Source: Bacillota bacterium
Lineage (GTDB): Bacteria > Bacillota > Clostridia > Peptostreptococcales > Anaerovoracaceae
Direction: 5' to 3'
Assembly: GCA_016280485.1 (NCBI GenBank)
Contig: JAEEGU010000051.1
Location: 18,166 to 82,165 of the forward strand
DNA length: 64,000 nt
Of the stretch, positions 3,552 to 61,738 are shown piece after piece; the first letter of the stretch is position 1; the number at the start of each line of letters is the position of its first letter. The translations under genes and the position numbers were made by a program. The notes under the pieces are model-generated. The model saw only the letters and a list, made by a program, of their open reading frames with translations. It made no database searches and had not been told where the DNA came from.

Positions 3552-3562
3552 GGGGTGGCAAG

Positions 3563-19458: not shown

Positions 19459-19704
19459 TGGTTCTCCTTTCTGTGGCTGTTCAAACCACTTACAATGTGC
19501 CAATTGCATTCACGCAAAGGGCGTTGTTTCTACCCCGGGCTATTGCCTGGAGCGATTCTTCGTATATATAAAAAGAGACCCTTCCCGACTTTTCGGAAAA
19601 GATCTCTCAGTTACTAAAAAATACTTCGTGAAGGTGCCTATCACGGCACTAAAAACCTTCATAAAGTACGTTGTTATTATATAATACTTTCGCCAATTTG
19701 TCAA
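19459..19704 (-). promoter_or_regulatory. Leader-repeat copy E1
   Basis: Minus strand: TTGACA 19704-19699, 17 nt, TATAAT 19681-19676, GTAC 19669-19666. Terminator hairpin 19607-19574 plus a U run. SD hairpin 19489-19473. This copy has the longest post-terminator spacer. Confidence 0.8.
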
Positions 19705-19826
19705 TTTAGATTTTTCGTATCGACTATTTTTTGAATATTTTTGATTTTTCTCTTGACAAAACGACTTATTCTGTTCTATGGTTATCGTAGATTAAGAAAT
19801 TAAACACAAAGAACGGAGGTAACATC

Positions 19827-20263: not shown

Positions 20264-21097
20264 TCAGTTTTCAGTTGTGATGTCGTCCCAGGTGATGATG
20301 CTTGCGATGCCGGAATTTTTGATTTTCCGAGCGCACATCATGCACGGGACGGCTTTTATTGATTTGCCGTTCTCAAATCCTGCGAGATACATTTTTGCGC
20401 CCCGGGCTTCCCTGCCGGCCTGAGTTAGAGCGTTGTCTTCGGCGTGGATCGCAACACACAGCTCGTAATTTGCCCCATGTGGGATGTTCTTTGCCTTGCG
20501 AAGACACGCACCAATATCGCAGCAGTTCGGCTCGCCTGCTGCGCTCCCGTTGTAGCCGGTCGCAATAATCCGGTTATCGGTAGTGACGATGACGGCACCG
20601 TACTGTCTACGAAGGCAGGTCGATCTTGAGCTTACGGCTTCCGCAATACGAAGAAAATATTCGTCCTTGGTAGCACGGTTATGTGTTTTGCCGTTATAGT
20701 TTTCAGCCCAGGCCTGCTTCATTACTGGATTATCGTTCAAGTAGGCAGCGAGGGCCTCGCGGTCATCATCAGAAAGGCCGTCTGCAAACTTAGCAGCATT
20801 ACTGATCGCAAACCGAACACGGCTTTGTTTTCCGATATCAAATCTTTCATATTGAAGAGGATCTGTGTAATCGTCGTTGGCCGATGTGAAGAGCGTAATA
20901 TCAGCCAGGTTCAAATCCTTAACGATGCTCGAAGAATCGTCATTTTTTTGTTGTACGTCGATCAGCTTAGAGGTAATGTTAACGGTTAGAACGAGCCCCT
21001 CATTAAGCTGCTGAAGGTCGTTATTATATGCAAAAACAATTCGATTGTTCCGTGCAAGAGCATATTTGGCAATGAACTGATTCTTGTATTGATGCAT
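20264..21097 (-). CDS. dCMP/cytidine deaminase domain with ~130-aa N-terminal extension of unknown function
   Basis: C-terminal half carries VAIHAEDNAL and PCMMCARKI (the H-A-E / PCxxC zinc-deaminase signature, ComEB-like). AAGGGAG SD. Confidence 0.85.
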   Translation of the reverse strand: MHQYKNQFIAKYALARNNRIVFAYNNDLQQLNEGLVLTVNITSKLIDVQQKNDDSSSIVKDLNLADITLFTSANDDYTDPLQYERFDIGKQSRVRFAISNAAKFADGLSDDDREALAAYLNDNPVMKQAWAENYNGKTHNRATKDEYFLRIAEAVSSRSTCLRRQYGAVIVTTDNRIIATGYNGSAAGEPNCCDIGACLRKAKNIPHGANYELCVAIHAEDNALTQAGREARGAKMYLAGFENGKSIKAVPCMMCARKIKNSGIASIITWDDITTEN

Positions 21098-25097: not shown

Positions 25098-25501
25098 GTG
25101 TCATCACCAGCCCCCTGTCCAGCCTCTTCGAAGGAATAGCTGGCGTCCAGACGCGGGGCGTAGTCCATGGGATTGACTGTGGGCTTCTTCTTGGGCTTCC
25201 ACGGGCTTACAGCGATCGTGTCAGCCTTGACTTCGATTTGGGATCGTTCCCTGCCCGTGGAGCTGTCCGTCCAGTACCGCGTGACAAGAGCGCCGGTCAC
25301 AGTAATAAGCTGCCCCTTCTTGCAATCCGCGAGGACCTCCGCCCAGACGTCCCAGGCGACAATGTCGTAAAAGTCAGCCTGAGCATCGGTATCCCGGTGA
25401 TGCGCGAGCCGCACCGATGTTACCGCCTTTCCATTCTGCGTTCTGCGCAAAACAGGATCGGTGGCAATTCTTCCTGCGAGTACGATTTGATTTACCATCA
25501 T
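25094..25501 (-). CDS. ssb: single-stranded DNA-binding protein
   Basis: Start moved to the internal ATG after GGAAAGGAAC. OB-fold pattern MVNQIVLAGRIATDPVLRRTQNGKAV...DFYDIVAWDVWAE...KKGQLITVTGAL. First gene after E2. Confidence 0.9.
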   Translation of the reverse strand: MMVNQIVLAGRIATDPVLRRTQNGKAVTSVRLAHHRDTDAQADFYDIVAWDVWAEVLADCKKGQLITVTGALVTRYWTDSSTGRERSQIEVKADTIAVSPWKPKKKPTVNPMDYAPRLDASYSFEEAGQGAGDDT

Positions 25502-25710
25502 TTTAATGTTCCTTTCCGCCCATTCGTCCAAATGGGCCGTCCCTGTGGCAATTCTTCGGCCTATATGCAAAAAGAGACCTTCTCCGCTAATCCGCGGAAA
25601 AGATCTCTCAATTACAAAAAAGGTACTTCGTGAAGATACGCCACAAACAGCATATAAATATCCTTCATAAAGTACGTGTTTAGTATATACTAAAAATGTT
25701 ATTTTGTCAA
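25502..25710 (-). promoter_or_regulatory. Leader-repeat copy E2
   Basis: Minus strand: TTGACA 25710-25705, 17 nt, TATACT 25687-25682, GTAC 25675-25672. Terminator hairpin 25608-25573 (15 bp) plus U5. SD hairpin 25537-25518 with loop UGGACG. Confidence 0.8.
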
Positions 25711-25735
25711 TTCAATTTTTCACAAAATGAAAAAA

Positions 25736-30178: not shown

Positions 30179-31132
30179 TTATGCCACCTCCTGATACTCG
30201 TGGTTTTCATAGACCTCTTTGAAACCAAAGCCAACAGCGTCGATAATGCCGTTTTCCGTGAGGTCATAGCCGAAGAAGCCGCAGCAGGAATCTACTTCCT
30301 CCCAGTTGTCCGAATTCTCCGGATCCTCTGAGATGTCGATTTCAGCGGGGCTTCCGGTATACTCGTAGGTGCGGTATTCGTACACTTCACCACACAGGTA
30401 ATTGTCGTAAGTTTGCACCTCCTCCTGCATATACTCGATTGCACGAGCTCTCCAGGTTTCTTCGGTCAGGGGCCGCGTCTTCCACGAATACGTCACCAGC
30501 CCGTTCGGGTGAACAACCTCAACCTTGATACGTTCGCCGTTTTCGTCCAGAACGTATTCGCAGGTTTCGGCCATGATCTTTTTCTTTTCTGCGATGATCC
30601 AGCCAACCTGACCGGAATCCCACGGGCAGTAGAATGGATTTGCGGCGCCGCAAGACATCGTGATCCCGCTATGGTCATACAGCCACAGCGGAAGCCATGC
30701 CATGTATGGTTCCAGAAGAGCCTGGCACTGGCCGATAGTCAGGTCGTCGAGCAACCACGCAAGGACGTCTTTCTGCGGAACATCCTTGTACTCCAGGCGT
30801 TCTTCACCATCGGATCTCCCGAAGGGCGGAAAAGAACATGACGACTCGTAGATGTCTTTACTCCCGCGGCAGTCGCGGCTTTCCTCGAAACGGATGCCTT
30901 CAACTTTCCCGGTATTGACCGCCTGGATGAACGCATCATTGGAAATATTATCCATGACAAGCCTTTGCCAGAACTCCTCCGGCGTAGTCACGCCACTGGG
31001 GGTTTCGTCGCCCAGGTTGTACTTCCGATGAAAGCAGGCCATAACACCGAGGTTATAATACTCCTTCCTTGGATTTGGGGCAAAATCGCACTGATTTACC
31101 TCAACGCAGTAGTTTTTGAAATAGTATCTCAT
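30179..31132 (-). CDS. hypothetical protein (first gene after E3)
   Basis: ATG follows the AGAAAGGAAAAACT of copy E3. 317 aa. Contains LYDHSGITMSCG...WDSGQVGWI. Confidence 0.7.
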   Translation of the reverse strand: MRYYFKNYCVEVNQCDFAPNPRKEYYNLGVMACFHRKYNLGDETPSGVTTPEEFWQRLVMDNISNDAFIQAVNTGKVEGIRFEESRDCRGSKDIYESSCSFPPFGRSDGEERLEYKDVPQKDVLAWLLDDLTIGQCQALLEPYMAWLPLWLYDHSGITMSCGAANPFYCPWDSGQVGWIIAEKKKIMAETCEYVLDENGERIKVEVVHPNGLVTYSWKTRPLTEETWRARAIEYMQEEVQTYDNYLCGEVYEYRTYEYTGSPAEIDISEDPENSDNWEEVDSCCGFFGYDLTENGIIDAVGFGFKEVYENHEYQEVA

Positions 31133-31329
31133 AGTTTTTCCTTTCTGCTCACTTGTCCCTGTGAGCCGTTCTTGTGTCCTATCTTCGTGCTATATGTAAA
31201 AAGAGACCTCTCCCGAAGTGGGAAAGATCTCCTGATTACAAAAAAATACTTCGTGAAGATGCCTTTTTGGCATTGATAAACCTTCATAAAGTACAGGATT
31301 AGTATATACTATTATTGAACAGGTGTCAA
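31133..31329 (-). promoter_or_regulatory. Leader-repeat copy E3
   Basis: Minus strand: TTGACA 31329-31324, 17 nt, TATACT 31306-31301, GTAC 31294-31291. Terminator hairpin 31232-31202 plus U5. SD hairpin 31166-31147 with loop AGGGACAA. Confidence 0.8.
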
Positions 31330-31398
31330 TAATTTTTGAAAAATTCTCCAATCTTCTATGTGCGGCCGCCCTGGTTTCCCAGGGCGGCTCATTGTGTT

Positions 31399-34622: not shown

Positions 34623-36968
34623 TTAATCGCCGTAAGACCAATCCGTATCGGATGTGCTGTCAGCGACGCCGACGCCATACCGTCCGTCCTCGATCATGGA
34701 ACGGACAGTCTGTGCCGCTTCGGTCCAATTCAGGACGGCAACGGGTTCGTACACGCCGGACTCCCGGATGCAGATGCCTTTTACCCCGGAGTCCAGGAAC
34801 ATCGAGAGATCGCCGACGTCGAAGCCAAAGCAGGCATCCCCAAACTCGTTCCGCAGAAAATCGCCAAAGTCACCGTCAAACAAGAACCGGTCTGACGCCG
34901 CAATGATGCTTTCCGCATCCGAATTGGCCAAACCGTTGACCAGCCCGGCCTCAATGATCTGTTCGACCATCTCGGCGGGGATGCTGTCTTCCGGGTCATT
35001 GGCGGCGTTTTCCATAAGCTCCGCATCCTGCTCGGATTCCGGGACACAGGGCTCGCAGCAGGAAGTAGTGCCGTTGGCAGGTTCTTCCGTCTTTTCGTCG
35101 TCTTCGTCGTCATCGTATTCATCGGGGAAAACCTGTTTCGGATTCTCCAGCCAGGCTTTGTAGGTCTCGATCTCGTTTTCGGCCAGGTAACGGCCGGCGT
35201 CACAGAGCTCCCGAATCCGCTTGGCGACCTTTGACCAGGATACCGTGATGTCCTCAATCGGGCTGCTCAGACCACCCAGGCGGAATCGGATTCCCCTGCT
35301 GTCGTGATCTTCAGCCAGATCCTTGTCAGAAATCGCAGGATAGTTTCCCCCGTTCCCGAAACAGCCCTTCAGAAAAGCAGCGTTTTCGGTGTTGGAAAGA
35401 CCTTTCTGAAACTGCTCGTAAATCGCGAATCGGGTTGTCCCGTAGCTTCGATATACCTCGTCCATGTCGTCCTGCGTGATGTGGACATTCTTGTCACCAT
35501 CATCTTCTGCAGGAGTCATTTCTTCGGAATTATCATTGGATACGTCCGGTTCAGATTGCTCTTGATTTGTCGGAGCAGCCTCGCCTTCAATGCTGCCGGT
35601 GTTTGAGGGTACTTCACTGAAGAACGGATGATTTCCGTTCTGAAGCTGGAGCTCCTCGTCGGACATCTCGTATCCCAGGGCGGAAAGAATCTTATAGAGA
35701 TCATCCAGGCCGTCGTTGGGTTCGTACTCCCAAACATACTGCTTGGAGTCACTGTCCCAACGGTTCTTGATGTATCCCTTCCCAAAGGGGGGATCCGTCA
35801 CCGCACCCGCGAGATAGAGCGCCGACTTTGCGGGGTACTTTCTGCCCGTGTCCGCAGCGTCGAAATAAATCTCTTCATCATCGGCACCAACGTAGTCGCC
35901 TACGCCGGAGAGAGTGTGCCGCAGACCGTTGTAGGAGTTGACATCCACCAGGTTCTCCCAGATCATCGCCATGATTTCCGGCAGGGCCTTCTTTGCCTTG
36001 GTCTCGGAAACGGAAGCAATAAAATTGGTCCGCAGCTTCCGGGGCCTGCTTCTGAGTTCGGCGGCTTTTACTTCCAGATAAGCGATGCGCTCACGCTCTT
36101 TGGCTGCCTTCTCAGTTCTGGCAGTATCCTGGTTCCGCTCTTCTTCCGTCAGGGGACGAAAGACTTCGAAGGCATAATAGCCGTTGTCCTTGAAATAATA
36201 CGGGACCGAACCGCCGAGTAGTTTGGCGTCACTGGGAAGATCGTGTTTTTCCTTGTCTCCGTATGCCACCGTGAGAATACGGCGGAAAGAAGACGTAGAC
36301 GTACCCTCCTCCAGCTTTTCAGCGAAGCTCTCGATAAAAGCGAAATTGGCAGCTTTTACGATTGCCTTTTCCTGCTTCTCCTGGGATACCATAAGCTCCC
36401 GGGCGAAGTTTTTAGTGCCGGCAGCCTGCAGGCAGCGTTTCCGGTCATCTGCGGAGTCCAGAGCGGCGATTGCTGCAAAGTCGAAAAGCGAAACGCCTCG
36501 CGCTTCGGCCTTTTTGAATTCGTCCTTATCCAACTTCAGAAGACCCGTTCGGTTCCGGATCGTCTGGGTGGAGAAACCGGACAGCTTTGAGACTTCTTCA
36601 ATGGTACCGCCGAGGTCCAGCATCATCTGGAAGCCTTCCGCCTGCTCATAGGGCGTCAGGTCGCTTCTCTGGACGTTTTCGCAGACCATGGTTCGCACCT
36701 GGGCCGCTTCGTCCATCTCCACAACGACGCAAGGAAGCTCAGTCAGCCCTGCCTGCTTTGCAGCGGCATGGCGACGGTGGCCGATGATTGCCGTGTACTC
36801 CCCTTCGCCGAGTTCCGGCGCCGGGACGACGGTAAGGTTCTGCAGCACCCCGTTCATCAGGATGCTTGCCGCCAGCTCAGAGAGGTCTCCGAGCTGCTTT
36901 CTGGGGTTCTTGGGGTGTGGATGAATATGCTCCACACCGATGTACATGATTTTCTTCTGTTCGTTCAT
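34623..36968 (-). CDS. large ParB/Srx-domain protein with additional repeated domains (polyvalent-protein-like)
   Basis: Start moved to the ATG at 36968 after the AGAAAGGAAAAC of E4. The ParB box is HPHPKNPRK...GVLQNLTVVP...IIGHRRHAAAKQAG. Two later segments end in ...W(S/T)..A..(I/V)R.(L/M)...GRY. Confidence 0.85.
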   Translation of the reverse strand: MNEQKKIMYIGVEHIHPHPKNPRKQLGDLSELAASILMNGVLQNLTVVPAPELGEGEYTAIIGHRRHAAAKQAGLTELPCVVVEMDEAAQVRTMVCENVQRSDLTPYEQAEGFQMMLDLGGTIEEVSKLSGFSTQTIRNRTGLLKLDKDEFKKAEARGVSLFDFAAIAALDSADDRKRCLQAAGTKNFARELMVSQEKQEKAIVKAANFAFIESFAEKLEEGTSTSSFRRILTVAYGDKEKHDLPSDAKLLGGSVPYYFKDNGYYAFEVFRPLTEEERNQDTARTEKAAKERERIAYLEVKAAELRSRPRKLRTNFIASVSETKAKKALPEIMAMIWENLVDVNSYNGLRHTLSGVGDYVGADDEEIYFDAADTGRKYPAKSALYLAGAVTDPPFGKGYIKNRWDSDSKQYVWEYEPNDGLDDLYKILSALGYEMSDEELQLQNGNHPFFSEVPSNTGSIEGEAAPTNQEQSEPDVSNDNSEEMTPAEDDGDKNVHITQDDMDEVYRSYGTTRFAIYEQFQKGLSNTENAAFLKGCFGNGGNYPAISDKDLAEDHDSRGIRFRLGGLSSPIEDITVSWSKVAKRIRELCDAGRYLAENEIETYKAWLENPKQVFPDEYDDDEDDEKTEEPANGTTSCCEPCVPESEQDAELMENAANDPEDSIPAEMVEQIIEAGLVNGLANSDAESIIAASDRFLFDGDFGDFLRNEFGDACFGFDVGDLSMFLDSGVKGICIRESGVYEPVAVLNWTEAAQTVRSMIEDGRYGVGVADSTSDTDWSYGD

Positions 36969-37159
36969 TTTGTTTTCCTTTCTGCCCGTATTTGGGGCGT
37001 CCTGTTGCGGTTCTTCCTGATATATATAAAAAGAGACCTTTCCCTTTCCGGAAAGATCTCTCAATTACAAAAAAAATACTTCATGCGGCCGCTGGAGTCA
37101 GCAGTAAAATCCTTCATAAAGTACAGGAATAGTATATACTGATTTCGCTTATTTGTCAA
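36969..37159 (-). promoter_or_regulatory. Leader-repeat copy E4
   Basis: Minus strand: TTGACA 37159-37154, 17 nt, TATACT 37136-37131, GTAC 37124-37121. Terminator hairpin 37061-37032 plus U5. Short SD hairpin 36998-36984, with GGAC just 5' of it. Confidence 0.8.
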
Positions 37160-37321
37160 CAGTTTTTCACGCCCCCTCAAAAGAGGGGGCGTTAGAATCA
37201 ACTCTTCTTGATTACGCTATCAGTCTGAGGTTGCGTAGACGAATGAGAGATCGATCATGATTCTCATGTTCATCCAGCAACTCATACTCAAAGTAAGCAG
37301 TATTCTTTGTCAAGCTGTGAC

Positions 37322-39497: not shown

Positions 39498-40006
39498 ACG
39501 CGAGCCTCCCTTCTGTAGACCAGCCCATCCCAGATTTCACTCGGAATGGAGGTGTCAAGACCTTCCGCCATGAAATCCAGGAACATCTCCCGGGTCAGAT
39601 TCCTTTCGGCCCATTTCGCCGCGTTGCCAATGATGCGGCGAGCGTCGGGACCGAAATTATAGTTTTCCTCCAGATACCTCTGGAGGTGATCGTACTTGTT
39701 GAAGCAGTCATCGTTGATACAATGCTCCACCATGTAGCCGATGCAGGCTTTCTTCCAGCCGTCAGGATCCGGGCCGGATAGTGCGAGGATGATGTCATTG
39801 ATGACCTCAGATTCCGACATCCATGTCAGATAGTCGCTGGGCCTGTCATAGTCCTCCGCCTCCGTGCCGCCGAAATAGAACCATTCCGGACCAATAAAGC
39901 ACACAAGGCCGTGGCCGGCTTCAGGGTCAAGGTCAAGCTTGACTATCCCGGACATCCACCCTCGACCGATCAGCGTATTCAGATCAGCCTTTACGTTGTC
40001 TTTCAT
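39494..40006 (-). CDS. hypothetical protein (first gene after E5)
   Basis: ATG follows the AGAAAGGAAAACAG of E5. 170 aa. Confidence 0.65.
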   Translation of the reverse strand: MKDNVKADLNTLIGRGWMSGIVKLDLDPEAGHGLVCFIGPEWFYFGGTEAEDYDRPSDYLTWMSESEVINDIILALSGPDPDGWKKACIGYMVEHCINDDCFNKYDHLQRYLEENYNFGPDARRIIGNAAKWAERNLTREMFLDFMAEGLDTSIPSEIWDGLVYRREARV

Positions 40007-40205
40007 CTGTTTTCCTTTCTGCCCACTTGTCCGTGTGGGCCGTCGTTGTGTCCTATCTTCGTGCTATATATAAAAAGAGACCTTCCCCACTCCAGTAGGA
40101 AAGATCTCTCGAATACAAAAAAATACTTCGTGAAGCTGCTGATAACAGCAGTAAATTCTTCATAAAGTACGGTATTAGTATATATTATTTGTGTAATAAA
40201 GTCAA
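40007..40205 (-). promoter_or_regulatory. Leader-repeat copy E5
   Basis: Minus strand: TTGACT 40205-40200, 17 nt, TATACT 40182-40177, GTAC 40170-40167. Terminator hairpin 40109-40076 plus U5. SD hairpin 40040-40021 with loop ACGGACAA. The P2 hairpin is identical to that of E9. Confidence 0.8.
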
Positions 40206-40243
40206 CTGTTTTCGAATTGCATCTCAGAAAAATTGTAAATAAC

Positions 40244-46381: not shown

Positions 46382-47857
46382 TTACGCAGCGAATTCTACG
46401 ATGTAATTCAGCAGGAGCGCTGATTCATCGTAGAACACGATTTCATCATTCTTGAGCGTGCCGGAGAAGCCCATTGTCATCCCGGCTTTGGCGTGTACAC
46501 AATTCTTGGATTCCCGATCCAGGAATGCCTGAGAAAAATGCGTCGCACTTTTCGGCTCGTAGGGTTTTCCGTATGCCGTGGCGAACAATCCCATGAAAGC
46601 ATGATTGCTTTTTCCCTGCGCCCAGTATGACCCGCTGAAGCTCGTATAGCCCCAGCTTTTCATAGCGCTTGGCGCAAAATAAATGCCGTTCCCCAGCATC
46701 TTGCCGGTGATAACAGCATTCGGGTTTAGAAGCAAACTTGTCTTCATGATGTTCAGCCAGTTTTCGTTTCTTGAGCCGTGCCACAGTTCTTTCACGTTCT
46801 TGATTCCCTTGGCCTTCAGATACGAATTAAATCGCTCCTTCTGAGCCTCAGGAATGACTCTGTAGACACGTTTAACCTTCTGCTTCAACTCGGCCGGCAG
46901 CTTTGCTAAAACCTTTTCCTGTTGCTCCTGAGTCGCCTCATATACGCGGACACCGTAATCCCGGAATCCGTCACGCTTCTTAGTTTTGGTTCCAACATGG
47001 GCGACAACGGACATCGCATTCAGCAAGCCTTCTTCACGGTCGATGATTTTCGGGAAGTCGCTTGGCTTTGTGGCCAGGAGCTCCGTAATGTATCGGACCT
47101 TCCGTGGTGACAGCGCAAGCAGCTTCGAAAGCCGCTGGTTAAAATCGTCGACGGAAACGGCGCTGCCCAGATCGTTCCACAGCTTCCAGCCCTCCTCGCA
47201 TTGAGCTCTTGAAACCGTCTGATTCTTCAGATGTGTTTCAACAACGCCCTTTGCGTAGGACAGAAGGACTTGGAACAGGTCATCTGCGACAGTACGGCCA
47301 TCCGGCGCTGACTCGCAACTTTCGCTTTCGCTGATTGACGGTGCAGAGTTCAGATAGATGTCGGTCTGGTCTACGTAGCCTTTGGAGAGCTTTTCATAAT
47401 ACCGGATCCAGTAAAGGTACGGTTCATATGGAACCTGAAGGTCTTTTGTGCCAAAGGCCTCTCCCCTTTCGGAACCGATACGCCCATAGGTAGCGCCGAC
47501 GGATGTGGTGACACCGCAGGAGTTACTTGGCCGCAGCCAGTAATACTTGTAATTGTTACTCTCCAGATTCACGCAGGTCAGGTACGCATCCTCGTACTTT
47601 GAACTTTCGAGATTCAGATCGTAATAATCGCAAGTCACATACATGGACGGGATCGTTTTCCCGTTTCTGATGTACGAGCCTCGTTTTCCGATGGAAAACA
47701 TGGCTCTACCTCCTGAGAACCTTTCGATTTTCAGGGTGCAGGGAATTTCTGCGTCAAGCAGCATTTCCCCTGCTTCTTTCATTACGGCGCTTTCATTACA
47801 CTCTGATTCAAGTGTTTTGATTTTGTTGCCGCATGAAAAGATAAATTTGTCTTTCAC
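46382..47857 (-). CDS. bacterial PARP homologue: WGR domain + PARP catalytic domain
   Basis: WGR-like NNYKYYWLRP...ATYGRIGS. Catalytic H-Y-E pattern: ELWHGSRNENW, GNGIYFAPS, NDEIVFYDES. GTG start after the AGAAAGGGAAAAAC of E6. Confidence 0.85.
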   Translation of the reverse strand: MKDKFIFSCGNKIKTLESECNESAVMKEAGEMLLDAEIPCTLKIERFSGGRAMFSIGKRGSYIRNGKTIPSMYVTCDYYDLNLESSKYEDAYLTCVNLESNNYKYYWLRPSNSCGVTTSVGATYGRIGSERGEAFGTKDLQVPYEPYLYWIRYYEKLSKGYVDQTDIYLNSAPSISESESCESAPDGRTVADDLFQVLLSYAKGVVETHLKNQTVSRAQCEEGWKLWNDLGSAVSVDDFNQRLSKLLALSPRKVRYITELLATKPSDFPKIIDREEGLLNAMSVVAHVGTKTKKRDGFRDYGVRVYEATQEQQEKVLAKLPAELKQKVKRVYRVIPEAQKERFNSYLKAKGIKNVKELWHGSRNENWLNIMKTSLLLNPNAVITGKMLGNGIYFAPSAMKSWGYTSFSGSYWAQGKSNHAFMGLFATAYGKPYEPKSATHFSQAFLDRESKNCVHAKAGMTMGFSGTLKNDEIVFYDESALLLNYIVEFAA

Positions 47858-48055
47858 GTTTTTCCCTTTCTGCCTATTTGTCCGAATAGGCCGCCTCTGT
47901 GTCGGTTCTTCCTGCTATATATAAAAAGAGACCTCCCCCGAAATGGGAAAGATCTCTCAATTACAAAAAAAGTACTTCGTGAGAATGCCGTTTAGGGCAT
48001 AAATAATCTCCATAAAGTACATGAACAGTATATACTATTTCTGGATTTTTGTCAA
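47858..48055 (-). promoter_or_regulatory. Leader-repeat copy E6
   Basis: Minus strand: TTGACA 48055-48050, 17 nt, TATACT 48032-48027, GTAC 48020-48017. Terminator hairpin 47957-47927 plus U5. SD hairpin 47891-47872 with loop UCGGACAA. Confidence 0.8.
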
Positions 48056-48083
48056 CACGAAAAAAGCAACATCATAAAAATGG

Positions 48084-48115
48084 GGCGCTATCGAAAAATG
48101 ATAGCGCCTCTTTTT
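48084..48115. terminator. hairpin/terminator shielding the E6 promoter
   Basis: GGCGCTATC/GATAGCGCC stem, with T5 on the plus side and CCAUUUUUAUG on the minus side. Confidence 0.55.
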
Positions 48116-48149
48116 AATCAGATCTTTTAAAAAAAATTAAAAAAATATG

Positions 48150-48195
48150 TAGACAGGGGCCCTGCTCTATGTTATATTCTATTTGTAGAGCAGGG
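48150..48195 (+). promoter_or_regulatory. promoter with flanking 10-bp inverted repeat (operator)
   Basis: TAGACA 48150-48155, 18 nt, TATATT 48174-48179. CCCTGCTCTA 48160-48169 and TAGAGCAGGG 48186-48195 bracket the -10. Confidence 0.6.
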
Positions 48196-48233
48196 TGCCT
48201 GGACTATTGAATTTAAATAAGGAGGTAATATCG

Positions 48234-48590
48234 ATGCCAGTAGTTAAGTTAACGTTGAGCCAAGAGGCCTATGAAGAATTACAGCGATTAGCTGGTAGCC
48301 AAAGCATTCAGGATTACATAAGAAGTAAAATATTCGGTAGCACTATTTTTACTGTGGATGAAGCAGTAAGACGAATCCAAGCCGGGGACTTTGATCCCGA
48401 AAAATATCCCGATGGCTTTGAACTCCCCGATGTATACGGAGACGAGTGGACTATTGCACGAGGTCCCGCAGGATCCTTTGGCAAACAGTTCTATAACCAC
48501 ATCGTAGCTAATCCTGATTTAGGCATAAGTTTTAAGAATATGGGCAAGTACGGCAGACGAGCCGTTTACACGTTTGAAAGGAGAAAATAG
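48234..48590 (+). CDS. hypothetical protein with possible N-terminal ribbon-helix-helix
   Basis: AAGGAGG SD. The N-terminus MPVVKLTLSQEAYEELQRLAG is RHH-like. AT-rich opposite-strand cassette. Confidence 0.6.
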   Translation: MPVVKLTLSQEAYEELQRLAGSQSIQDYIRSKIFGSTIFTVDEAVRRIQAGDFDPEKYPDGFELPDVYGDEWTIARGPAGSFGKQFYNHIVANPDLGISFKNMGKYGRRAVYTFERRK

Positions 48591-48797
48591 ATGAATAACA
48601 AACAGATTCGTAGGGCTATGAAGAATTTCGTTAAACATTACGGACAACAGGACACTCGAAAAATGACTAACCTGTTCTCTGCTGCGTACAAAACGCCCAA
48701 ACAGAGAATTGCGGGGAATCTAAAAACCATGCATTACGATGAAAAAACAATACTGATAACTACACATATCCCTGCCTGCTATAGCACAATGAATTAA
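48591..48797 (+). CDS. small basic protein
   Basis: ATG abuts the upstream stop (TAGATG). 68 aa, Lys/Arg-rich. Confidence 0.5.
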   Translation: MNNKQIRRAMKNFVKHYGQQDTRKMTNLFSAAYKTPKQRIAGNLKTMHYDEKTILITTHIPACYSTMN

Positions 48798-51713: not shown

Positions 51714-52244
51714 TTATATTTTTCTGAATTCCAGGTTGAAAGTGTCGCTGTAAGCGGCGACACCGTTCCAGTCATCGTACCGAACCCTTTCTTGCTGCCC
51801 ATTGTGGCAGAAAACCAGATTAGGACGAGGTTCATCTCCATCGTCACCAAAAGGCAGGCGAGTACTACAGATATACCATTTGGCAAAGTTTTCTTTCGGG
51901 AAATGATTCTCCCGCAGGTAATGCTTTCCGTTGGCATCTCTGTAGATCTCGCGGCCGGAACCTTCTTGGATACCGATAAATTCAACCGAAATGGTCTTGT
52001 CCGGATTTCTTTTTGGATCGTTATAAAAATCGTTAAAAGAAATCTTCACGACCCATTCCTCACAGAAATCGGAGTAGGTCAGCGTGGCGTGGTTTTTGAT
52101 GTAATCAACACCTGCTTTTTCCAGCAAATGTGCAGGCATGAGGATGTAACCCTCATGCCCTTTGCTATCGATGCAGATCACCTTCCGGTGCTCCTGAATC
52201 ATGTGATCCGGCGTCACGAAAGATCTGTCAATCAATACTTCCAT
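51714..52244 (-). CDS. hypothetical protein
   Basis: TAGGAGG SD. 176 aa. Confidence 0.6.
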   Translation of the reverse strand: MEVLIDRSFVTPDHMIQEHRKVICIDSKGHEGYILMPAHLLEKAGVDYIKNHATLTYSDFCEEWVVKISFNDFYNDPKRNPDKTISVEFIGIQEGSGREIYRDANGKHYLRENHFPKENFAKWYICSTRLPFGDDGDEPRPNLVFCHNGQQERVRYDDWNGVAAYSDTFNLEFRKI

Positions 52245-52253
52245 AGCAACCTC

Positions 52254-52403
52254 CTAAACAGAGCGTGTCGACTGCAGGGGCTCTCGGAAGATTTCCCTGT
52301 CCACGTCGTCCATTTCTTTTCGGAGCATTTCTGAGCTGGCATTTCGCAGCCAGTTCACGAATTCTTCCAGATCTTCGGTTGTCCCTGTATTGCTTTTATC
52401 CAT
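52254..52403 (-). CDS. small acidic protein
   Basis: Internal ATG after AGAAAGGAAG. 49 aa. 8-nt overlap with the upstream gene. Confidence 0.45.
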   Translation of the reverse strand: MDKSNTGTTEDLEEFVNWLRNASSEMLRKEMDDVDREIFREPLQSTRSV

Positions 52404-52854
52404 TGTAGACTTCCTTTCTGTCGGCGCCGCTTTCTTCAATGTAGGAAAACAGCTTCTCTTTCACAAAGGCGTAAAGGTAGAAGTTGTAGTCTCCCTTCAC
52501 CGGGATGCAGCGCAGAAGATACGCATACTGTTCGGTATCGAAATAGAATGCGTACTGCTCGCAGTATGCGCCGGTGAGCAAGGTCTTGCCCCAGCACATC
52601 TTGCTCATGTCTGCGCGACTTTTGAGGATGCCTTCTCTGAGCGTATTGACGACGTCGTCAAATTCCTGCTTGAAGGCGGCAGTCTTCAGCTCCGGACAGG
52701 AATCGAAGAAGGTGGTGTAAAACAAGCCGCCCGAGGATCCAAAATCCCCGCGCAGGTGCCCGATCTCTCCGATACGTTCCTTCAGATCATGATCCTTGCC
52801 GAACACGAGCGAGTGCCAGCGATTACTGAGTTCTTTCAAAATCAGTTCTTTCAT
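52396..52854 (-). CDS. hypothetical protein
   Basis: GAAAGGGG SD. 152 aa. Contains HLRGDFGSSGGLFYTTF. Confidence 0.6.
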   Translation of the reverse strand: MKELILKELSNRWHSLVFGKDHDLKERIGEIGHLRGDFGSSGGLFYTTFFDSCPELKTAAFKQEFDDVVNTLREGILKSRADMSKMCWGKTLLTGAYCEQYAFYFDTEQYAYLLRCIPVKGDYNFYLYAFVKEKLFSYIEESGADRKEVYNG

Positions 52855-52875
52855 TATTATACCCCTTTCAAATCA

Positions 52876-53814
52876 TTAGATCAAAAAATGGTGGTCTTCG
52901 ACGCAATCGGGATAAATTGCTCGAATCGCCTCGATTCCGCGGAATCCGCACTTGAAGAACTGCGTCTTCTTAGCTTCAGCAGCGACAGCAGCGTCAACAG
53001 CGTCCTTGTGGAAGTTGCCGTTAAGCAGATAGTCGGCGGCTTCGCTCAGTCTGAGGTTGTGCTGAACGTAATAAGGGGCCGTCGGAGGTCCGCACTTGCT
53101 TACAACCGAGACGTTCTCGTACGCCGCGAAATGCGTCCGGATTGCTTCTTTGGCAAGCCGTTTCGCAGTACCTTCCGCGTACATCGGGCCGCAGATCGAT
53201 TCGTCGAAATCGGTTCCAATGAACTGTCCGCCGGAATAGTATTCCGACCAAACTGCACCGCACACCTTATGCCTGCATCGAACTCGCTCAATGTGGAGCT
53301 CTTCGCCGAGATAGGCATAGGTGGAAAGCTGTTCGGGCTCACCGATATTTTCCGCCATGCAGTACAGCCAGTTCTCCTGGTAATCCTTTGCTTCCGGATA
53401 GGCGTCAGGATCCTTAAAGCTAAGAAGCCAGTCGTTGAACTTCCCCGCAGGATCCCCCGTTGCCCAATGCACATAGAACAGTACGTTCTGGTCTTCGACC
53501 GTAGCGTTGATCAAAGACTGTTCCGTAAAGCTCTTCCATCGCGCAAAGGCCTCTTCTTTTGGCGTGTTGAAGTTCGCGCTCCCATCGCCGTTGTTGGTAC
53601 GGAAAAGCTCCGTTCCCTCCTGATCGCAGACGATAACGGTGATATCATTCGAGATTACCCCGTCGATCTCGCAGTAACCGAGAGGATCGCAGACGTAGAC
53701 CCATTGCTTTTGGCCATACGTAAAACGGCCGATGTACTGGTCCTCCCCTACGATTTTCCAGAGCTCGACGTATGAGTCGTTCTCCGGACAATAGAGTTTT
53801 ACTTTGATTTCCAT
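52876..53814 (-). CDS. hypothetical protein (first gene after E7)
   Basis: Internal ATG after the AGAAAGGAAAAAG of E7. 312 aa. Confidence 0.65.
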   Translation of the reverse strand: MEIKVKLYCPENDSYVELWKIVGEDQYIGRFTYGQKQWVYVCDPLGYCEIDGVISNDITVIVCDQEGTELFRTNNGDGSANFNTPKEEAFARWKSFTEQSLINATVEDQNVLFYVHWATGDPAGKFNDWLLSFKDPDAYPEAKDYQENWLYCMAENIGEPEQLSTYAYLGEELHIERVRCRHKVCGAVWSEYYSGGQFIGTDFDESICGPMYAEGTAKRLAKEAIRTHFAAYENVSVVSKCGPPTAPYYVQHNLRLSEAADYLLNGNFHKDAVDAAVAAEAKKTQFFKCGFRGIEAIRAIYPDCVEDHHFLI

Positions 53815-54017
53815 CTTTTTCCTTTCTCCCACGCTGTCCAGGCGTGGGCTTCTGTCGTTGGCTTTTCTTCTTTCTATATGTAAAAAGAGACCTTCCCCAT
53901 GATTCTTGGGTGAAGATCTCTCAATTACGGAATTTTACTTCGTGAAGTCCCAATCTGGGCAGTAATAATCTTCATAAAGTACATTGATAGTATATACTAT
54001 TGTTTACGCAAAGTCAA
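53815..54017 (-). promoter_or_regulatory. Leader-repeat copy E7
   Basis: Minus strand: TTGACT 54017-54012, 17 nt, TATACT 53994-53989, GTAC 53982-53979. Terminator hairpin 53921-53886 plus U5. SD hairpin 53848-53828 with loop CUGGACAG. The U-linker is altered to AAAAUUCCGUAAUU. Confidence 0.8.
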
Positions 54018-54035
54018 CTTGTTTTTCATTTTGGC

Positions 54036-54482
54036 TCAATGAATAATCCGCTCCCGGTCTCCCGGGAGCGGAATGTGTTGCCGCCTTGAAACTCAGCTCG
54101 AAACGAGCCTGCAAACTCTTGGTAGCGGCAGTTTTGAAGTCGACGCGTCTCCCCTAACTGACCCACAGATGCATGGCGGATGATTTGATGTCGCCCAATT
54201 TTGGAGGGCAGTGCCCAGTACATCGGAATAAGCCCAAAATCAATCGGACTATGGATCAAGGGTTTCGCATGAAATGCGAGGCGTAACGCAAAACCTTTTG
54301 CTTACTGCTTGTGGCAGCTCGCAATAGCAGAAAGAAGAAAGAACACAGGGCGCCCCACTGGAGAAATGAGCGGGGCAGAGATGAAAGGAATGCGGCCCTT
54401 GCCAGCAGCGAGCTGGCCGGCGGAGTGGACAGTTCCGCTTGCGTTCATTGCCGGGCCATATCAGGTAGAACTTGCTCTTTCT
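54036..54482 (-). ncRNA. candidate ~450-nt structured non-coding RNA (unidentified)
   Basis: It has its own TTGACA-17-TAGTAT promoter and is bounded upstream by a strong terminator. It ends in the hairpin 54072-54047 (UCCGCUCCCGG/CCGGGAGCGGA) plus UUAUUCAUU. No ORF with an SD is present. Many local hairpins, at least one needing a G.U pair on this strand. Confidence 0.5.
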
Positions 54483-54488
54483 GGCCTT

Positions 54489-54517
54489 ATACTATACCAA
54501 CTTTTTCGCTTTGTCAA
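54489..54517 (-). promoter_or_regulatory. promoter of the ORF-less unit
   Basis: Minus strand: TTGACA 54517-54512, 17 nt, TAGTAT 54494-54489. Confidence 0.6.
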
Positions 54518-54537
54518 CTCCACAGCAAATTTTTCGC

Positions 54538-54573
54538 AAAAAATTACCCCATGCCTAAAAAGGCACGGGGTAA
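54538..54573 (-). terminator. intrinsic terminator after 54576..54926
   Basis: UUACCCCGUGCC/GGCAUGGGGUAA (12 bp) followed by U6, 3 nt after the stop. Confidence 0.8.
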
Positions 54574-54575
54574 AA

Positions 54576-54926
54576 TCATGTGGACAGCTTTGGCTGCATG
54601 AATGCAATCGCCAATTCTGCCGCTTCCTTTGCGTCCTTGAGGGCTTCCATATAGGAATCAATTTCGCATAGTTTCAAATCATGATTGCTCAGTTTAACCA
54701 ACGGTTCACCGTGGTCCGGAACGTAAACAATGTTCAGCCCGCTTTTTTTCGCTTTGATATCGACCACGATCCCGCTGTTGCGGATCGTATGGTTCTGCTT
54801 GTCCTGGCGGTAGTCGCCATCGTAGAACCATTTGAGACGATATTTCTCGTTTTCAGCGGTCTGTCCGAACAACGCCCCACAAATAGGCTCCTCGGAATAA
54901 TCCCTGACAATTTTGAACTCAGTCAT
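54576..54926 (-). CDS. hypothetical protein
   Basis: ORF 54576..55181 trimmed to the ATG after AAGGGTGA. 116 aa. Confidence 0.6.
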   Translation of the reverse strand: MTEFKIVRDYSEEPICGALFGQTAENEKYRLKWFYDGDYRQDKQNHTIRNSGIVVDIKAKKSGLNIVYVPDHGEPLVKLSNHDLKLCEIDSYMEALKDAKEAAELAIAFMQPKLST

Positions 54927-55032
54927 GTTATCACCCTTTTTCAGTTTATCACTGGTGGGTGATGATGTCAAGGATGTCCTGTTCTGTGATTTACAGAGAA
55001 GTACAGGAAAGATCTCCGTCTGACCGTTGCGA

Positions 55033-55530
55033 TCAGAGGGTATGCAGAATTTCCGCAATCTTCTTTTCGTCATACTCCTCCTTCTTCTCGAACACGGCAT
55101 TGTCGAATGCCGCCCACTCGGGATCATTGCCGATACCGCGATTGTACGCAGTATTGATGAACAGCCCGATTGCTCTTGCAACGGCGTCCTTCACCAGATC
55201 GTCATCCTCCGGTCCGTCTGGAATCGAGGGGAACATTTCCTCGATATTGTACTGGCGGCAGTGTCGGTTGATGATCCGGACAGAAGCCACGGCTGCTCCG
55301 TGTATGGCGTTTCGCTCATACATGGATTGTTCCTTGCGTTCGAGGATATCTTCGCCGTCAAAGCGGTATTCCCAGGACGGAAACAGGATTTGCTGGCGGA
55401 TAACGCAGTTAGCGTAGTCCACCAAATGAATCAGGCACTCCTCAATGAATGCGAGGTATTCGTTCAAATCCTCCTTCGATGTTGCGACGGCCGCAATCGC
55501 AGCCATCAGATTCTTCATTCGGTTCAGCAT
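55033..55530 (-). CDS. hypothetical protein
   Basis: 165 aa. The SD GAAAGGA lies in the loop of the hairpin AGUGGGA/UCCCACU immediately 5' of the ATG. Confidence 0.6.
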   Translation of the reverse strand: MLNRMKNLMAAIAAVATSKEDLNEYLAFIEECLIHLVDYANCVIRQQILFPSWEYRFDGEDILERKEQSMYERNAIHGAAVASVRIINRHCRQYNIEEMFPSIPDGPEDDDLVKDAVARAIGLFINTAYNRGIGNDPEWAAFDNAVFEKKEEYDEKKIAEILHTL

Positions 55531-56074
55531 AGTGGGATCCTTTCTCCCACTCCTCGCCCTGGGTAGGACTGGAGTGGATACCCAGTCCTACCCGGGCGTG
55601 GCTTTATCAATTTGATTTCCGAGTTTTTTCTCGGACTCGTCTCTCTTCTTTGAGGACATGAGCCAAAGGAGTCACGGGCTTATCTCCTTGTCATCGGAGC
55701 AGAGGGTCACGGCCCGCCTCTGATTTCATCACCGTTCTTCGAACAGGTATGCGAGGCGGGAGCCTCGCTTCGATATTCAGTTGAGAATACCCGGCCCATT
55801 GACGCAAGGCCTATATATTTACACCAGCATCCTGGCGATTCTCCCCGTGCGCAAGCGCACGTACTGTTCGTCTTCCTTGAAGACAAACAAAAACCGCCAC
55901 TGCCCCTATACCTTCGCGCAACGTCCCTCGTTGCATCTCTAAGGGGGTGACGGATACTTCTTAGATCGGCAGCCCAGTTTGGGGTGCGGATCTGTGCCTG
56001 AAGGATATAATATCCCATTCAGTAATCTTCGTTAAGTACGGCTATATTATATACTATCATTGATTGTGTGTCAA
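55531..56074 (-). promoter_or_regulatory. long (~510 nt) structured leader with consensus promoter; divergent relative of the leader repeat
   Basis: Minus strand: TTGACA 56074-56069, 17 nt, TATAAT 56051-56046, GTACTTAACGAAG from 56039. Terminator-like stem 55953-55894 plus U5 (55893-55889). More stems follow, e.g. GUAGGACUGG/CCAGUCCUAC. No credible ORF. Confidence 0.6.
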
Positions 56075-56163
56075 CAGTTTTCTGTGCCAAATCCGTTCAT
56101 CGTGACTTCAAAAAAATTTTCAAGTTCGGCATTGGATTGGACCAAATTCGTTTGCTTTTGCAG

Positions 56164-56192
56164 TTGATTTATAAATCCTTTTTGTGTAAGAT
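56164..56192 (+). promoter_or_regulatory. promoter of the lipoprotein gene
   Basis: TTGATT 56164-56169, 17 nt, TAAGAT 56187-56192. Confidence 0.45.
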
Positions 56193-56211
56193 AAAAGCAG
56201 GAGGTGTTACT

Positions 56212-56889
56212 ATGAAAAAACATATTTGCATTGTACTAACTGTTATTATCGTTATTTCATGTTTTGCCGCGTGTTCGACCGCAAAAAAAAGAGAGAAAAT
56301 TTCTATTGACGAATTCATAGAGAAGTACAAAAGGGCCGACATTGAAACCTTAAAGGCTGATCCGCTTCCATTCTTTGAAGATTTTTACGCGGTGGAAAAA
56401 ACTGCAAAATCAAACGAAGAGTACGGCGCGAAATTCTTAGATTGGCCAGCCGATGAAACATTCAAGGAATTTGAAGACAAGGATTATCAATACAAAGATA
56501 AAGAGGTTGTTCTTTTCAACACACCTGCTGAGATCGACGTTACGATTCATAAGGGTGCCGTTTCGTCGTTATTTGTCCATATCGGAACCGGAAATGCGGA
56601 AACGGATTTTGAAACAGCAAAGGCTATAACAGACGCCCTAATCCAGAACCTTGGTGATGCGCAGAAAATCGAGATCGATTACGAGGAGGTAAGCGAAGCA
56701 GCACTAAGACAAATGTTCAATGGCGAAATGAAAAGTTTCAGTGTCTACTTCAAAAGCCCGGAGAGTGAATACATGGACCTGGATGAAGAGCAAAAGCAGG
56801 AATATTACGAAAACCAGTATTATAGCTATACGATTGCATTCGCCGTCTACGGATATGGGACGCAGCATTCCTACATTTCGATTTATTGA
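56212..56889 (+). CDS. lipoprotein (opposite-strand AT-rich cassette)
   Basis: Internal ATG after AGGAGG. Signal peptide with lipobox: MKKHICIVLTVIIVISCFAAC. Confidence 0.75.
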   Translation: MKKHICIVLTVIIVISCFAACSTAKKREKISIDEFIEKYKRADIETLKADPLPFFEDFYAVEKTAKSNEEYGAKFLDWPADETFKEFEDKDYQYKDKEVVLFNTPAEIDVTIHKGAVSSLFVHIGTGNAETDFETAKAITDALIQNLGDAQKIEIDYEEVSEAALRQMFNGEMKSFSVYFKSPESEYMDLDEEQKQEYYENQYYSYTIAFAVYGYGTQHSYISIY

Positions 56890-60964: not shown

Positions 60965-61501
60965 TTACCGTTCTTCCGTGTTCCGCACAAACCACATAAT
61001 GTCGTGGTTGTAAACTTCCACAAGAATTTTGTTGAGCGCATCATATGCCTCTTTTGTAAGGGCGCATTTCGGATCAGCCAGAGCCTCAGATATTTTCCGC
61101 TCGAATTCATGCTGACAAACCAACCAGGATTTAGGCGGTTCAGGAATCTTCCCATGCAGGCCATCAGAAACGGCTTCCGCCAAATCCCAGATCTTGCGTT
61201 CTTCTTCCTCAATATCTCTGATCAGAGAAAACAGATCCGGGACACCGGAAAGGCCATTTTCTTTCGCCTCCAGGTAGGCTTTGACCTCTTCCTCTGCGTC
61301 GAAGTCATTGTATCTTTCGCGCAGGAGTCCTGGAATGTCATCCAGCTTTGAGTAAAACTCAATATAGTTGAGTTCACGACCAATGCTGGTAAATCCGGAG
61401 AACTCAACATATTTGTTTTTCTTGCCGTTCCCCTCTTGCGTTTTGAATGCAGCGTTGAAGTCGAGAGCGTTTACTGCGGCTTCAATTGTTCGTTTTCCCA
61501 T
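60965..61501 (-). CDS. hypothetical protein (first gene after E8)
   Basis: ATG follows the AGAAAGGAAAAAAA of E8. 178 aa. Confidence 0.65.
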   Translation of the reverse strand: MGKRTIEAAVNALDFNAAFKTQEGNGKKNKYVEFSGFTSIGRELNYIEFYSKLDDIPGLLRERYNDFDAEEEVKAYLEAKENGLSGVPDLFSLIRDIEEEERKIWDLAEAVSDGLHGKIPEPPKSWLVCQHEFERKISEALADPKCALTKEAYDALNKILVEVYNHDIMWFVRNTEER

Positions 61502-61702
61502 TTTTTTCCTTTCTGCTCACTTGTCCCTGTGAGCCGTCTTTGTGTCCTATCTTCGTGCTATATATAAAAAAGAGACCTTCCCTACTTCCGTAGAAAAGAT
61601 CTCCTGATTACAAAAAAATACTTCGTGAAGGTGCCGTTTTAGGCACTGATAATCCTTCATAAAGTACAATGATAGTATATATTATTTTTTGTGTAATGTC
61701 AA
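61502..61702 (-). promoter_or_regulatory. Leader-repeat copy E8
   Basis: Minus strand: TTGACA 61702-61697, 17 nt, TATACT 61679-61674, GTAC 61667-61664. Terminator hairpin 61604-61571 plus U6. SD hairpin 61534-61515 with loop AGGGACAA. The 3' ~75 nt are nearly identical to E3. Confidence 0.8.
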
Positions 61703-61738
61703 CTGCAAAATTGCGTATTATGGAGTATAAACAGCGCC

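Follow-up and report, generated by a model that had tools for sequence, protein, structure and literature searches.

A promoter-to-terminator interval without an open reading frame in a cassette array on a probable conjugative element

What is the role, if any, of a stand-alone interval that carries a promoter-like site and a terminator but no gene between them? Such a unit lies on the minus strand at positions 54036–54517 of the 64,000-nucleotide stretch of Clostridia DNA analyzed here (the window), within an array of small operons. An earlier note, made from the DNA letters, had read it as a candidate large structured non-coding RNA, or else as a single-strand origin (sso) of a conjugative element. 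Our analysis shows that the unit is a stand-alone interval free of open reading frames (ORFs), that it is non-coding, and that it belongs to no described RNA family. The reading that we tentatively favor is that it represents a rearranged gene-less cassette, transcribed without a demonstrated role, in a modular small-operon array. The array lies on what is probably a conjugative element, carried by an uncultured lineage of Clostridia.

Boundaries and content of the unit

The upstream boundary of the unit is an intrinsic terminator (54573–54544, minus strand; 13-bp stem and T6), which lies directly 3' of the stop codon of a gene for a 116-residue protein (54926–54576) and closes the operon of DUF3232 and this gene. 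It is followed on the same strand by a sigma-70-type promoter-like site, TTGACA-17-TAGTAT (54517–54489), which agrees with the consensus at 10 of 12 positions, and by the ORF-free body (54485–54036), with a presumed transcript of about 440 nucleotides, a GC content of 0.54, and a slightly pyrimidine-rich sense strand. The body ends in a perfect minus-strand hairpin (54072–54047) of 11 pairs, nine of them G-C, with the GNRA loop GAGA and the tail TTATTCATTG, while the promoter of the next minus-strand cassette (54017–53989; leader repeat r54 and a gene for a 312-residue protein) forms the downstream boundary. The terminator, the promoter-like site, the 11-bp hairpin, and the following leader-repeat promoter all lie where the earlier note had placed them. 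The terminal hairpin belongs to the same class as the terminators preceding seven of the nine leader-repeat promoters; its loop is GAAA in the allele on contig L029, and its tail reads UUAUUC in the window and UUUUUC in L011 and L028. Across the window, 13 sites have a perfect hairpin of 10 bp or longer, compared with 0.35 expected from shuffles.

Comparison of the unit with the other cassettes of the array revealed what it shares with them and what it lacks. The standard cassette consists of the terminator of the previous unit, about 30 nucleotides, a strong promoter with a palindromic -10 region, a leader of about 190 nucleotides, the gene or genes, and a terminator. Its promoter is TTGACA-17-TATACT, with a perfect 12-nt palindrome, TAGTATATACTA, across the -10 region as a candidate operator. 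The leader contains a 5' hairpin with a U run, a second hairpin with a U run, and a third hairpin adjoining the Shine-Dalgarno sequence AGAAAGGA. A GC-rich terminator of the previous unit lies 25–45 nt upstream of seven of the nine leader-repeat promoters (r19 and r56 being the exceptions); the unit's own promoter is likewise preceded by a GC-rich hairpin terminator, and its 3' hairpin is the one before r54. Thus, the promoter type and both terminators of a cassette are present in the unit, while the leader and the gene are absent. The unit promoter can be aligned with the nine leader-repeat promoters from an A-rich stretch upstream of the -35 box to halfway through the -10 box, and diverges after that; it carries neither the palindrome nor the leader, and its profile alignment to the leader promoters is weak (E 0.45, local search).

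The composition of the unit also sets it apart. Its GC content is 0.54, against 0.36–0.40 in eight leaders and 0.49 in the whole window, in agreement with the earlier description of the interval as GC-rich relative to other intergenic DNA, and both the GC skew and the AT skew flip sign across it. No terminal inverted repeats or structure resembling a miniature inverted-repeat transposable element were found at the unit, no direct-repeat family of the window (iterons or tandem copies) falls within it, and it resembles nothing else in the window.

The unit is non-coding. Mechanical translation yields minus-strand ORFs of 77 (TTG start) and 48 (ATG start) amino acids and plus-strand ORFs of 120 and 96 amino acids. 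The minus-strand ORFs have no Shine-Dalgarno sequence, which bears out the earlier claim of about 445 nt without such an ORF; on the plus strand, a leader-like Shine-Dalgarno sequence precedes a 94-codon frame, and no plus-strand promoter was found inside the unit. Codon usage was scored with a log-odds model trained on 33 genes of the window, which ranked the true frame first among the six in 95% of windows. Within the unit, the mean log-odds did not rise above 0.05 in any frame, compared with 0.27 ± 0.13 for real genes. A six-frame query found no match at E values up to 10 among 5.8 billion protein clusters, and the allele substitutions showed no three-base periodicity as judged by eye. The decayed gene that the earlier note had allowed for is thus unsupported in any frame, by codon bias or by a protein relative.

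The unit also belongs to no described RNA family. Searches of the whole window against Rfam gave no match at gathering thresholds, and a search of the unit alone at E values up to 10 returned only noise (21 bits against a gathering threshold of 56, and 8.7 against 50). None of the families named beforehand as worth comparing (ROOL, GOLLD, raiA, and HEARO) matched, and neither did OLE or EAR. ARAGORN found no transfer RNA or transfer-messenger RNA (tmRNA). The impression that the unit is unlike tmRNA, RNase P RNA, 6S RNA, T-boxes, group I and II introns, and riboswitches therefore agrees with both programs.

Fold, alleles, and linkage to the upstream operon

To describe the structure of the unit, we folded the sense and antisense strands as RNA and as DNA, the terminal hairpin being either kept or removed. 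For the whole unit, the z-score was -2.69 in the sense orientation and -1.26 in the antisense one. For the 408-nt body without the terminal terminator hairpin, these values were -1.41 and +0.09. Because the z-score drops from -2.69 to -1.41 upon removal of the hairpin, the stability of the whole-unit fold comes mostly from that hairpin. Against mononucleotide shuffles, the whole unit reached a z-score of -4.2; 16 coding controls gave -1.6 ± 1.0, with a lowest value of -4.1. The local helices described earlier, GCCAGC/GCUGGC, UCGCAU/AUGCGA, and GCCCCGC/GUGGGGC, are all present in the minimum-free-energy fold, and the last of these is indeed fully paired only on minus-strand RNA, through a G.U pair. 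These helices are real, yet they are no more than a sequence of 54% GC gives by chance, and the body z-scores do not uphold the description of the interval as full of structure.

Substitutions between alleles were then compared with the predicted fold. None of the 23 substitutions in L011 and L002 is compensatory, which is a weak test with three alleles that diverge by at most 4%. In the predicted long-range helix, three of the four substitutions break pairing, and in the 3' domain two substitutions alter G-C or G-U pairs on one side only; the four substitutions of L029, checked by eye, add no compensatory change. No covariation-supported structure, the lack of which had been named in advance as counting against a structured RNA, emerged from these near-identical alleles, which are too shallow a sample for a covariation test.

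A separate observation concerns the ORF-free 510-nt leader at 55531–56040 (minus strand; GC 0.53), between a leader-type promoter (56074–56046) and the DUF3232 gene. Its predicted fold has an energy of -212.5 kcal/mol, compared with -163.3 ± 6.1 kcal/mol for shuffled sequences (z = -8.08). It shows no coding signal, no Rfam match at E values up to 1, and no similarity to the unit. Judged by its predicted fold, this leader is a much stronger candidate for a structured RNA or an attenuator than the unit.

The unit is known from a handful of metagenome contigs. Contigs retrieved through the flanking proteins and through homologues of these yielded no copies other than near-identical ones (L001–L003, L011, and L027–L031). 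Over the unit, the sequences of L001, L003, L027, and L031 do not differ from the window; there are 3 substitutions in L002, 4 (in the body) in L029, and 20 in L011 and L028, of which 17 lie, without indels, within a patch at 54076–54185 (minus strand). This divergent patch implies recombination with a more diverged, unretrieved allele, on the evidence of the alignment. Substitution density in the body is 0.9%, against 0.3–0.5% in adjacent genes of the same recombination block. Since this density is not below that of the adjacent genes, there is no sign of constraint in this shallow allele sample.

Searches beyond these contigs gave no further copy. The comparison by blastn that the earlier note had advised, made against 72,556 PLSDB plasmids (11-base words) and phage records, found no match. 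Exact-pattern scans of viral contigs and an exact scan of GTDB species genomes with a 23-mer of the unit, both blind to distant relatives, also found nothing. The leader pattern gave one chance match in the GTDB genomes, inside an ORF of a metagenome-assembled genome labelled Sulfurospirillum. In the JGI metagenomes, a collection that does not include the source contig, a 19-mer common to two alleles matched eight times, all by chance according to nhmmer; here too, the exact pattern would miss a distant relative.

Comparison of related loci indicated that the unit is optional and that it belongs to the module upstream of it. In L004, which encodes a 115-residue protein 79% identical to the product of the upstream gene, the terminator is followed directly by a leader-type promoter, with no unit between them; such a junction shows the unit to be dispensable. 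The DUF3232 operons of more distant relatives (L005–L010) gave no match to the unit, and it is absent from the related arrays L012–L016 and from arrays with homologues of the downstream gene. When L029 was compared with window positions 52950–55613, identity was at least 99% upstream of 54041 and 69–89% downstream, which places the breakpoint between the terminal hairpin and the next promoter. From the position of this breakpoint, the unit belongs to the upstream module, composed of the r56 promoter, the 510-nt leader, the DUF3232 gene, the gene for the 116-residue protein, and the unit, and the aligned alleles indicate that it travels with the upstream operon as one recombination block. The alleles are recombination mosaics, and in L029 the exchange appears to have taken place at a terminator-promoter junction. 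L011, compared with the window over 52146–56807, differs in patches at 56305–56807, 54076–54185, and 52146–52334.

An inverted leader-like segment and two ways to read it

One segment of the body resembles the array leaders. Positions 54321–54389 align in inverted orientation to the 3' part of the leader, from ATAGCA..GAAGAA through hairpin 3 to the Shine-Dalgarno sequence, so that on the minus-strand transcript the segment is antisense to the Shine-Dalgarno-proximal region of the leader. It includes the GCCCCGC/GUGGGGC hairpin (54376–54352) and a CU-rich tract (54345–54326). The helix thus lies in an apparent inverted copy of the third hairpin and the ribosome-binding region of the leader. 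The inverted alignment scored above the direct alignment in all eight leaders, and in seven of the eight it was equaled or bettered by only 1–19 of 200 shuffles (p 0.005–0.09). The leader profile gave only 6.6 bits on the segment (nhmmer E 0.45 window-wide and 0.0035 within the unit), for a region picked post hoc. Judging from these alignments, the segment is likely, although not established, to be an inverted and diverged leader copy.

An ungapped scan and duplex calculations on short segments were used to assess complementarity between the unit transcript and the leaders. For seven of the eight canonical leaders, the best complementarity fell within nucleotides 113–165 of the transcript (the exceptions being r40 and, outside the canonical set, the atypical r56). 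The predicted duplex energies ranged from -50 to -68 kcal/mol, with z-scores of -3.3 to -4.3 for six of nine leaders and 0–1 of 200 shuffles matching them. Just 5' of the inverted hairpin, the stretch AUUCCUUUCAUCUCUG (54377–54392, minus strand), which contains UUCCUUUC, the complement of the GAAAGGAA Shine-Dalgarno sequence of the leaders, was predicted to be mostly unpaired (mean 0.81). For the CU-rich tract, the prediction was mostly of pairing inside the RNA. Other transcripts of the window gave 8 exact complementary matches of 12 nt or longer, compared with 3.1 expected, and no match exceeded 14 nt.

In the gene-less cassette reading, which we consider the leading one while giving it less than even confidence, a cassette rearrangement would have left an array-type promoter (without the palindrome) and an array-type terminator enclosing about 440 bp that hold neither leader nor gene. 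The enclosed DNA would include the apparent inverted and diverged leader piece, and the rearranged unit would still give rise to a non-coding transcript, about 440 nt long, that has no conserved fold of its own. The reading is favored because of the cassette-type boundaries, the missing leader and gene, the unexceptional fold (against the z-score of -8.08 of the 510-nt leader), the lack of constraint, and the dispensability seen in L004. A history of rearrangement fits the apparent inverted leader fragment, the plus-strand cassettes elsewhere in the array, and the reversed GC and AT skew.

Several observations weigh against this reading. The promoter, with a perfect -35 box and a 17-nt spacer, and the terminator, with its perfect 11 bp, are intact and identical in all alleles. 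With up to 20 substitutions over 461 nt, neither L011 nor L029 has an indel, while the neighboring non-coding DNA has some. The GC content is far above that of other local non-coding DNA, which is unexpected for old unconstrained DNA, and no source of the 440 bp was found in the window or among known proteins. Finally, the antisense segment has complementarity to the best-conserved blocks of the leaders, and its anti-Shine-Dalgarno sequence is predicted to be accessible, as would be the case in a functional antisense RNA.

The main rival takes up this last point. In this explanation, which is possible but doubtful, the unit would encode a trans-acting antisense RNA (or, by read-through, a cis-acting one) against the shared leaders. 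Nucleotides 94–165 of the unit would pair with the Shine-Dalgarno-proximal 70 nt common to the array leaders, beginning at the exposed anti-Shine-Dalgarno sequence or through a loop-loop contact of the inverted hairpin. Translation would thereby be blocked, or cleavage triggered, and all the cassettes would be damped together. The RNA itself would come from a promoter without the palindrome that is the candidate operator of the other promoters. Antisense RNAs that pair with an mRNA leader are known from conjugative plasmids, as with FinP and the traJ leader. As in such systems, the unit segment is predicted to be complementary to the ribosome-binding region of its targets, and its hairpin mirrors the target hairpin, as in a loop-loop contact. 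Classical plasmid antisense RNAs are encoded opposite their target, are perfectly complementary, and measure 70–110 nt, whereas the unit is about 440 nt long, is encoded elsewhere, and is approximately 60–70% complementary to eight or nine dispersed targets.

This antisense explanation makes use of the one distinctive sequence content of the unit and offers a concrete mechanism. The location of the best complementarity, the duplex z-scores, the consistent preference for the inverted orientation, and the predicted exposure of the anti-Shine-Dalgarno stretch all agree with it, as do the intact promoter and terminator, the G.U pair that forms on the minus-strand RNA only, and the better fold of the sense strand. 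Against it, the homology of the inverted fragment is weak and its region was chosen after the data had been seen; pairing between pyrimidine-rich and purine-rich sequences easily arises by chance; the CU tract is predicted to be largely self-paired; and the nearest related arrays with leaders lack the unit. A more far-reaching form of the idea, more doubtful still, is that a single RNA of some 440 nt may act as a shared post-transcriptional brake on about ten establishment or anti-defence operons of a clostridial conjugative element. Its promoter would be free of the operator that controls the regulon, and its inverted copy of the ribosome-binding hairpin of the common leader would let it pair with all of the leaders.

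Other readings and the surrounding array

A new large structured RNA (a scaffold, protein sponge, or ribozyme-like molecule) whose fold is its function, the first choice of the earlier note, is unlikely. The ORF-free, GC-rich, promoter-to-terminator layout of the unit speaks for it, as do the z-scores of the whole unit, including that against mononucleotide shuffles. On the other side stand the unexceptional fold of the body, the lack of compensatory substitutions, the empty Rfam search, and the failure to find a diverged homologue in any collection searched.

Less probable again is an RNA that acts in cis in processive antitermination, like conAn2, put, or EAR. Such an RNA would ride with the polymerase through its own 3' hairpin and through the two terminator-like hairpins of each downstream leader, and these hairpins with their U runs make some form of antitermination plausible. 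The tail of the 3' hairpin is U-poor in the window allele, although the L011 allele has an improved U tract. conAn2, the RNA component of conAn antitermination in Gram-positive conjugative plasmids, is a poorly conserved intergenic RNA of 260–600 bp downstream of a small gene (PMC8191782). The unit is similar in size, poor conservation, and position, being a non-coding region that follows a small gene and precedes genes with terminators between them. It differs from conAn2 in that no ConAn1 partner adjoins it (the DUF3232 and 116-residue proteins gave no match to PF17362), in that a strong terminator and a separate promoter stand between it and the upstream gene, and in that it does not head the array: the same-leader cassettes r56 and r61 also lie upstream of it. 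Rfam, as noted, gave no EAR match.

It is very unlikely that the unit works at the DNA level, on the strand transferred in single-stranded form, as an sso-type priming site or an Frpo-type promoter on single-stranded DNA (ssDNA). The one-directional array of small accessory genes is like the leading or establishment regions of conjugative elements, and the GC-rich interval contains several hairpins. As in sso1 of ICEBs1 and the sso of pTA1060 (PMC4595007), the unit is a non-coding interval with hairpins on a (here probable) conjugative element. Known sso's are approximately 200 bp long, and those of integrative and conjugative elements are recognized through 76–100% identity to plasmid sso's (PMC4595007), whereas the unit has no similarity to any PLSDB plasmid, among them the rolling-circle plasmids that served for this recognition, and so no match to an sso of the ssoA, ssoT, or ssoU type. 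The CS-6 motif TAGCGW of ssoA-type origins occurs on neither strand of the unit; the only related site is a plus-strand TAGCGG, which the L011 allele does not preserve. The ssDNA folds have z-scores of only -1.9 and -2.3 with the terminal hairpin included, and the promoter region is largely unpaired in them. No inverted repeat covers 54489–54517 beyond an 8-nt match 493 nt away, so that the -35 and -10 boxes would not lie in a stem, whereas those of an Frpo-type promoter sit within a long imperfect hairpin of the single strand. A small protein or a recently decayed gene is equally improbable, as the mechanical ORFs and the plus-strand frame of 94 codons come with no codon bias, no match in the six-frame query, no three-base periodicity, no Shine-Dalgarno sequence on the minus strand, and no internal promoter on the plus strand.

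The array to which the unit belongs contains nine minus-strand copies of the promoter and its leader of about 190 nt, at 19473–19719, 25485–25723, 31115–31343, 36945–37173, 39987–40220, 47839–48067, 53795–54027, 56021–56084 (r56, 5' part only), and 61485–61715, and a tenth copy on the plus strand at 807–1010. These leader repeats have no match in Rfam, PLSDB, IMG/VR, or GTDB genomes, and they look like the mark of accessory operons that are regulated together. Just downstream of r25, the 3' leader profile has one more, weak match (25426–25477, minus strand; E 0.013), which may be a partial tandem duplication. Apart from some plus-strand cassettes, the array is one-directional, and its genes are small and mostly without assigned function. 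The matches among the cargo include a DNA methylase, a PARP-like domain, LPD34, DUF3232, DUF5983, a deaminase, a YodL/DUF3846 protein, a ParB-N protein, a topoisomerase, a RecD-like helicase, YqaJ, and two sortases. The cargo at 1743–6115 (plus strand), 20264–21097, and 46382–47857 comprises a pair of AAA_5 (MoxR-like) and VWA (CobT_C) proteins, a cytidine/dCMP deaminase-domain protein, and a PARP-catalytic-domain protein, which are candidates for conflict or anti-defence functions.

Two plus-strand segments interrupt or oppose the minus-strand array. At 48082–48797, a small operon with the promoter-like site TAGACA-17-TATATT and a TG (48150–48178) contains ORFs of 131 (48195–48590) and 68 (48591–48797) amino acids and has a two-way terminator at 48082–48110; it might encode a regulator of the array. 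At 56068–56889, an AT-rich island (GC 0.33–0.43) carries a probable lipoprotein gene, with a signal peptide ending in cysteine; the island is about 15% diverged in L011, with flanks approximately 99% identical.

The element is likely to be conjugative. The YodL/DUF3846 protein matches mostly plasmids predicted to be conjugative, the best PLSDB match being the Subdoligranulum plasmid OY725878 (43% identity), which has neither leader nor unit. The assignment stays at this level because no relaxase or type IV secretion gene was found within the window. In L005–L010 (L005, 2214–3357), an operon of DUF3232 and a 118-residue protein with a standard short leader lies at the end of an element, between the host nrdD gene and a convergent pair of genes for a 66-residue protein and a 558-residue integrase. 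This arrangement suggests that relatives of the array are integrative elements.

A comparable organization has been described in the pLS20 family, in which one conserved regulatory sequence precedes many variable establishment operons, EGeRS2 in p576 and EGeRS1 in pLS20 (PMC8708921). EGeRS2 is a strong promoter with an operator under repressor-based control, and the control of EGeRS1 is unexplained; EGeRS1 units are non-coding, 420–750 bp long, GC-rich (51% against 38%), without a promoter, located directly upstream of a ribosome-binding site, and predicted to fold very stably (PMC8708921). The nine or ten promoter-leader repeats of the window, with their palindrome at -10, are like EGeRS2. 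The unit resembles EGeRS1 in size and GC content, and the 510-nt leader at 55531–56040 does so still more closely in size, GC content, and position, without sequence similarity. Unlike EGeRS1, the unit starts with a promoter and closes with a terminator of its own, with no gene behind it and a body fold at chance level. It shows neither the more than 60% identity to known copies, nor the position before a ribosome-binding site, nor the very stable fold that define EGeRS1, and no PLSDB plasmid has a similar sequence.

What can be demonstrated for the locus is nothing unusual, namely a stretch of non-coding DNA from promoter to terminator within an array of shuffled cassettes. It is best called an unclassified non-coding transcription unit of a mobile element or a candidate antisense RNA. 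Better leads in the window are the 510-nt leader with its strong fold and the repeated promoter-leader unit. If inert, the unit is mainly an example of the shuffling of cassette arrays on conjugative elements, with terminator-promoter junctions as the points of exchange, and it shows that a tidy promoter-to-terminator interval alone is no evidence for an RNA gene. If the antisense explanation is true, the unit would add an RNA layer to the control of establishment or anti-defence genes in Gram-positive conjugative elements.

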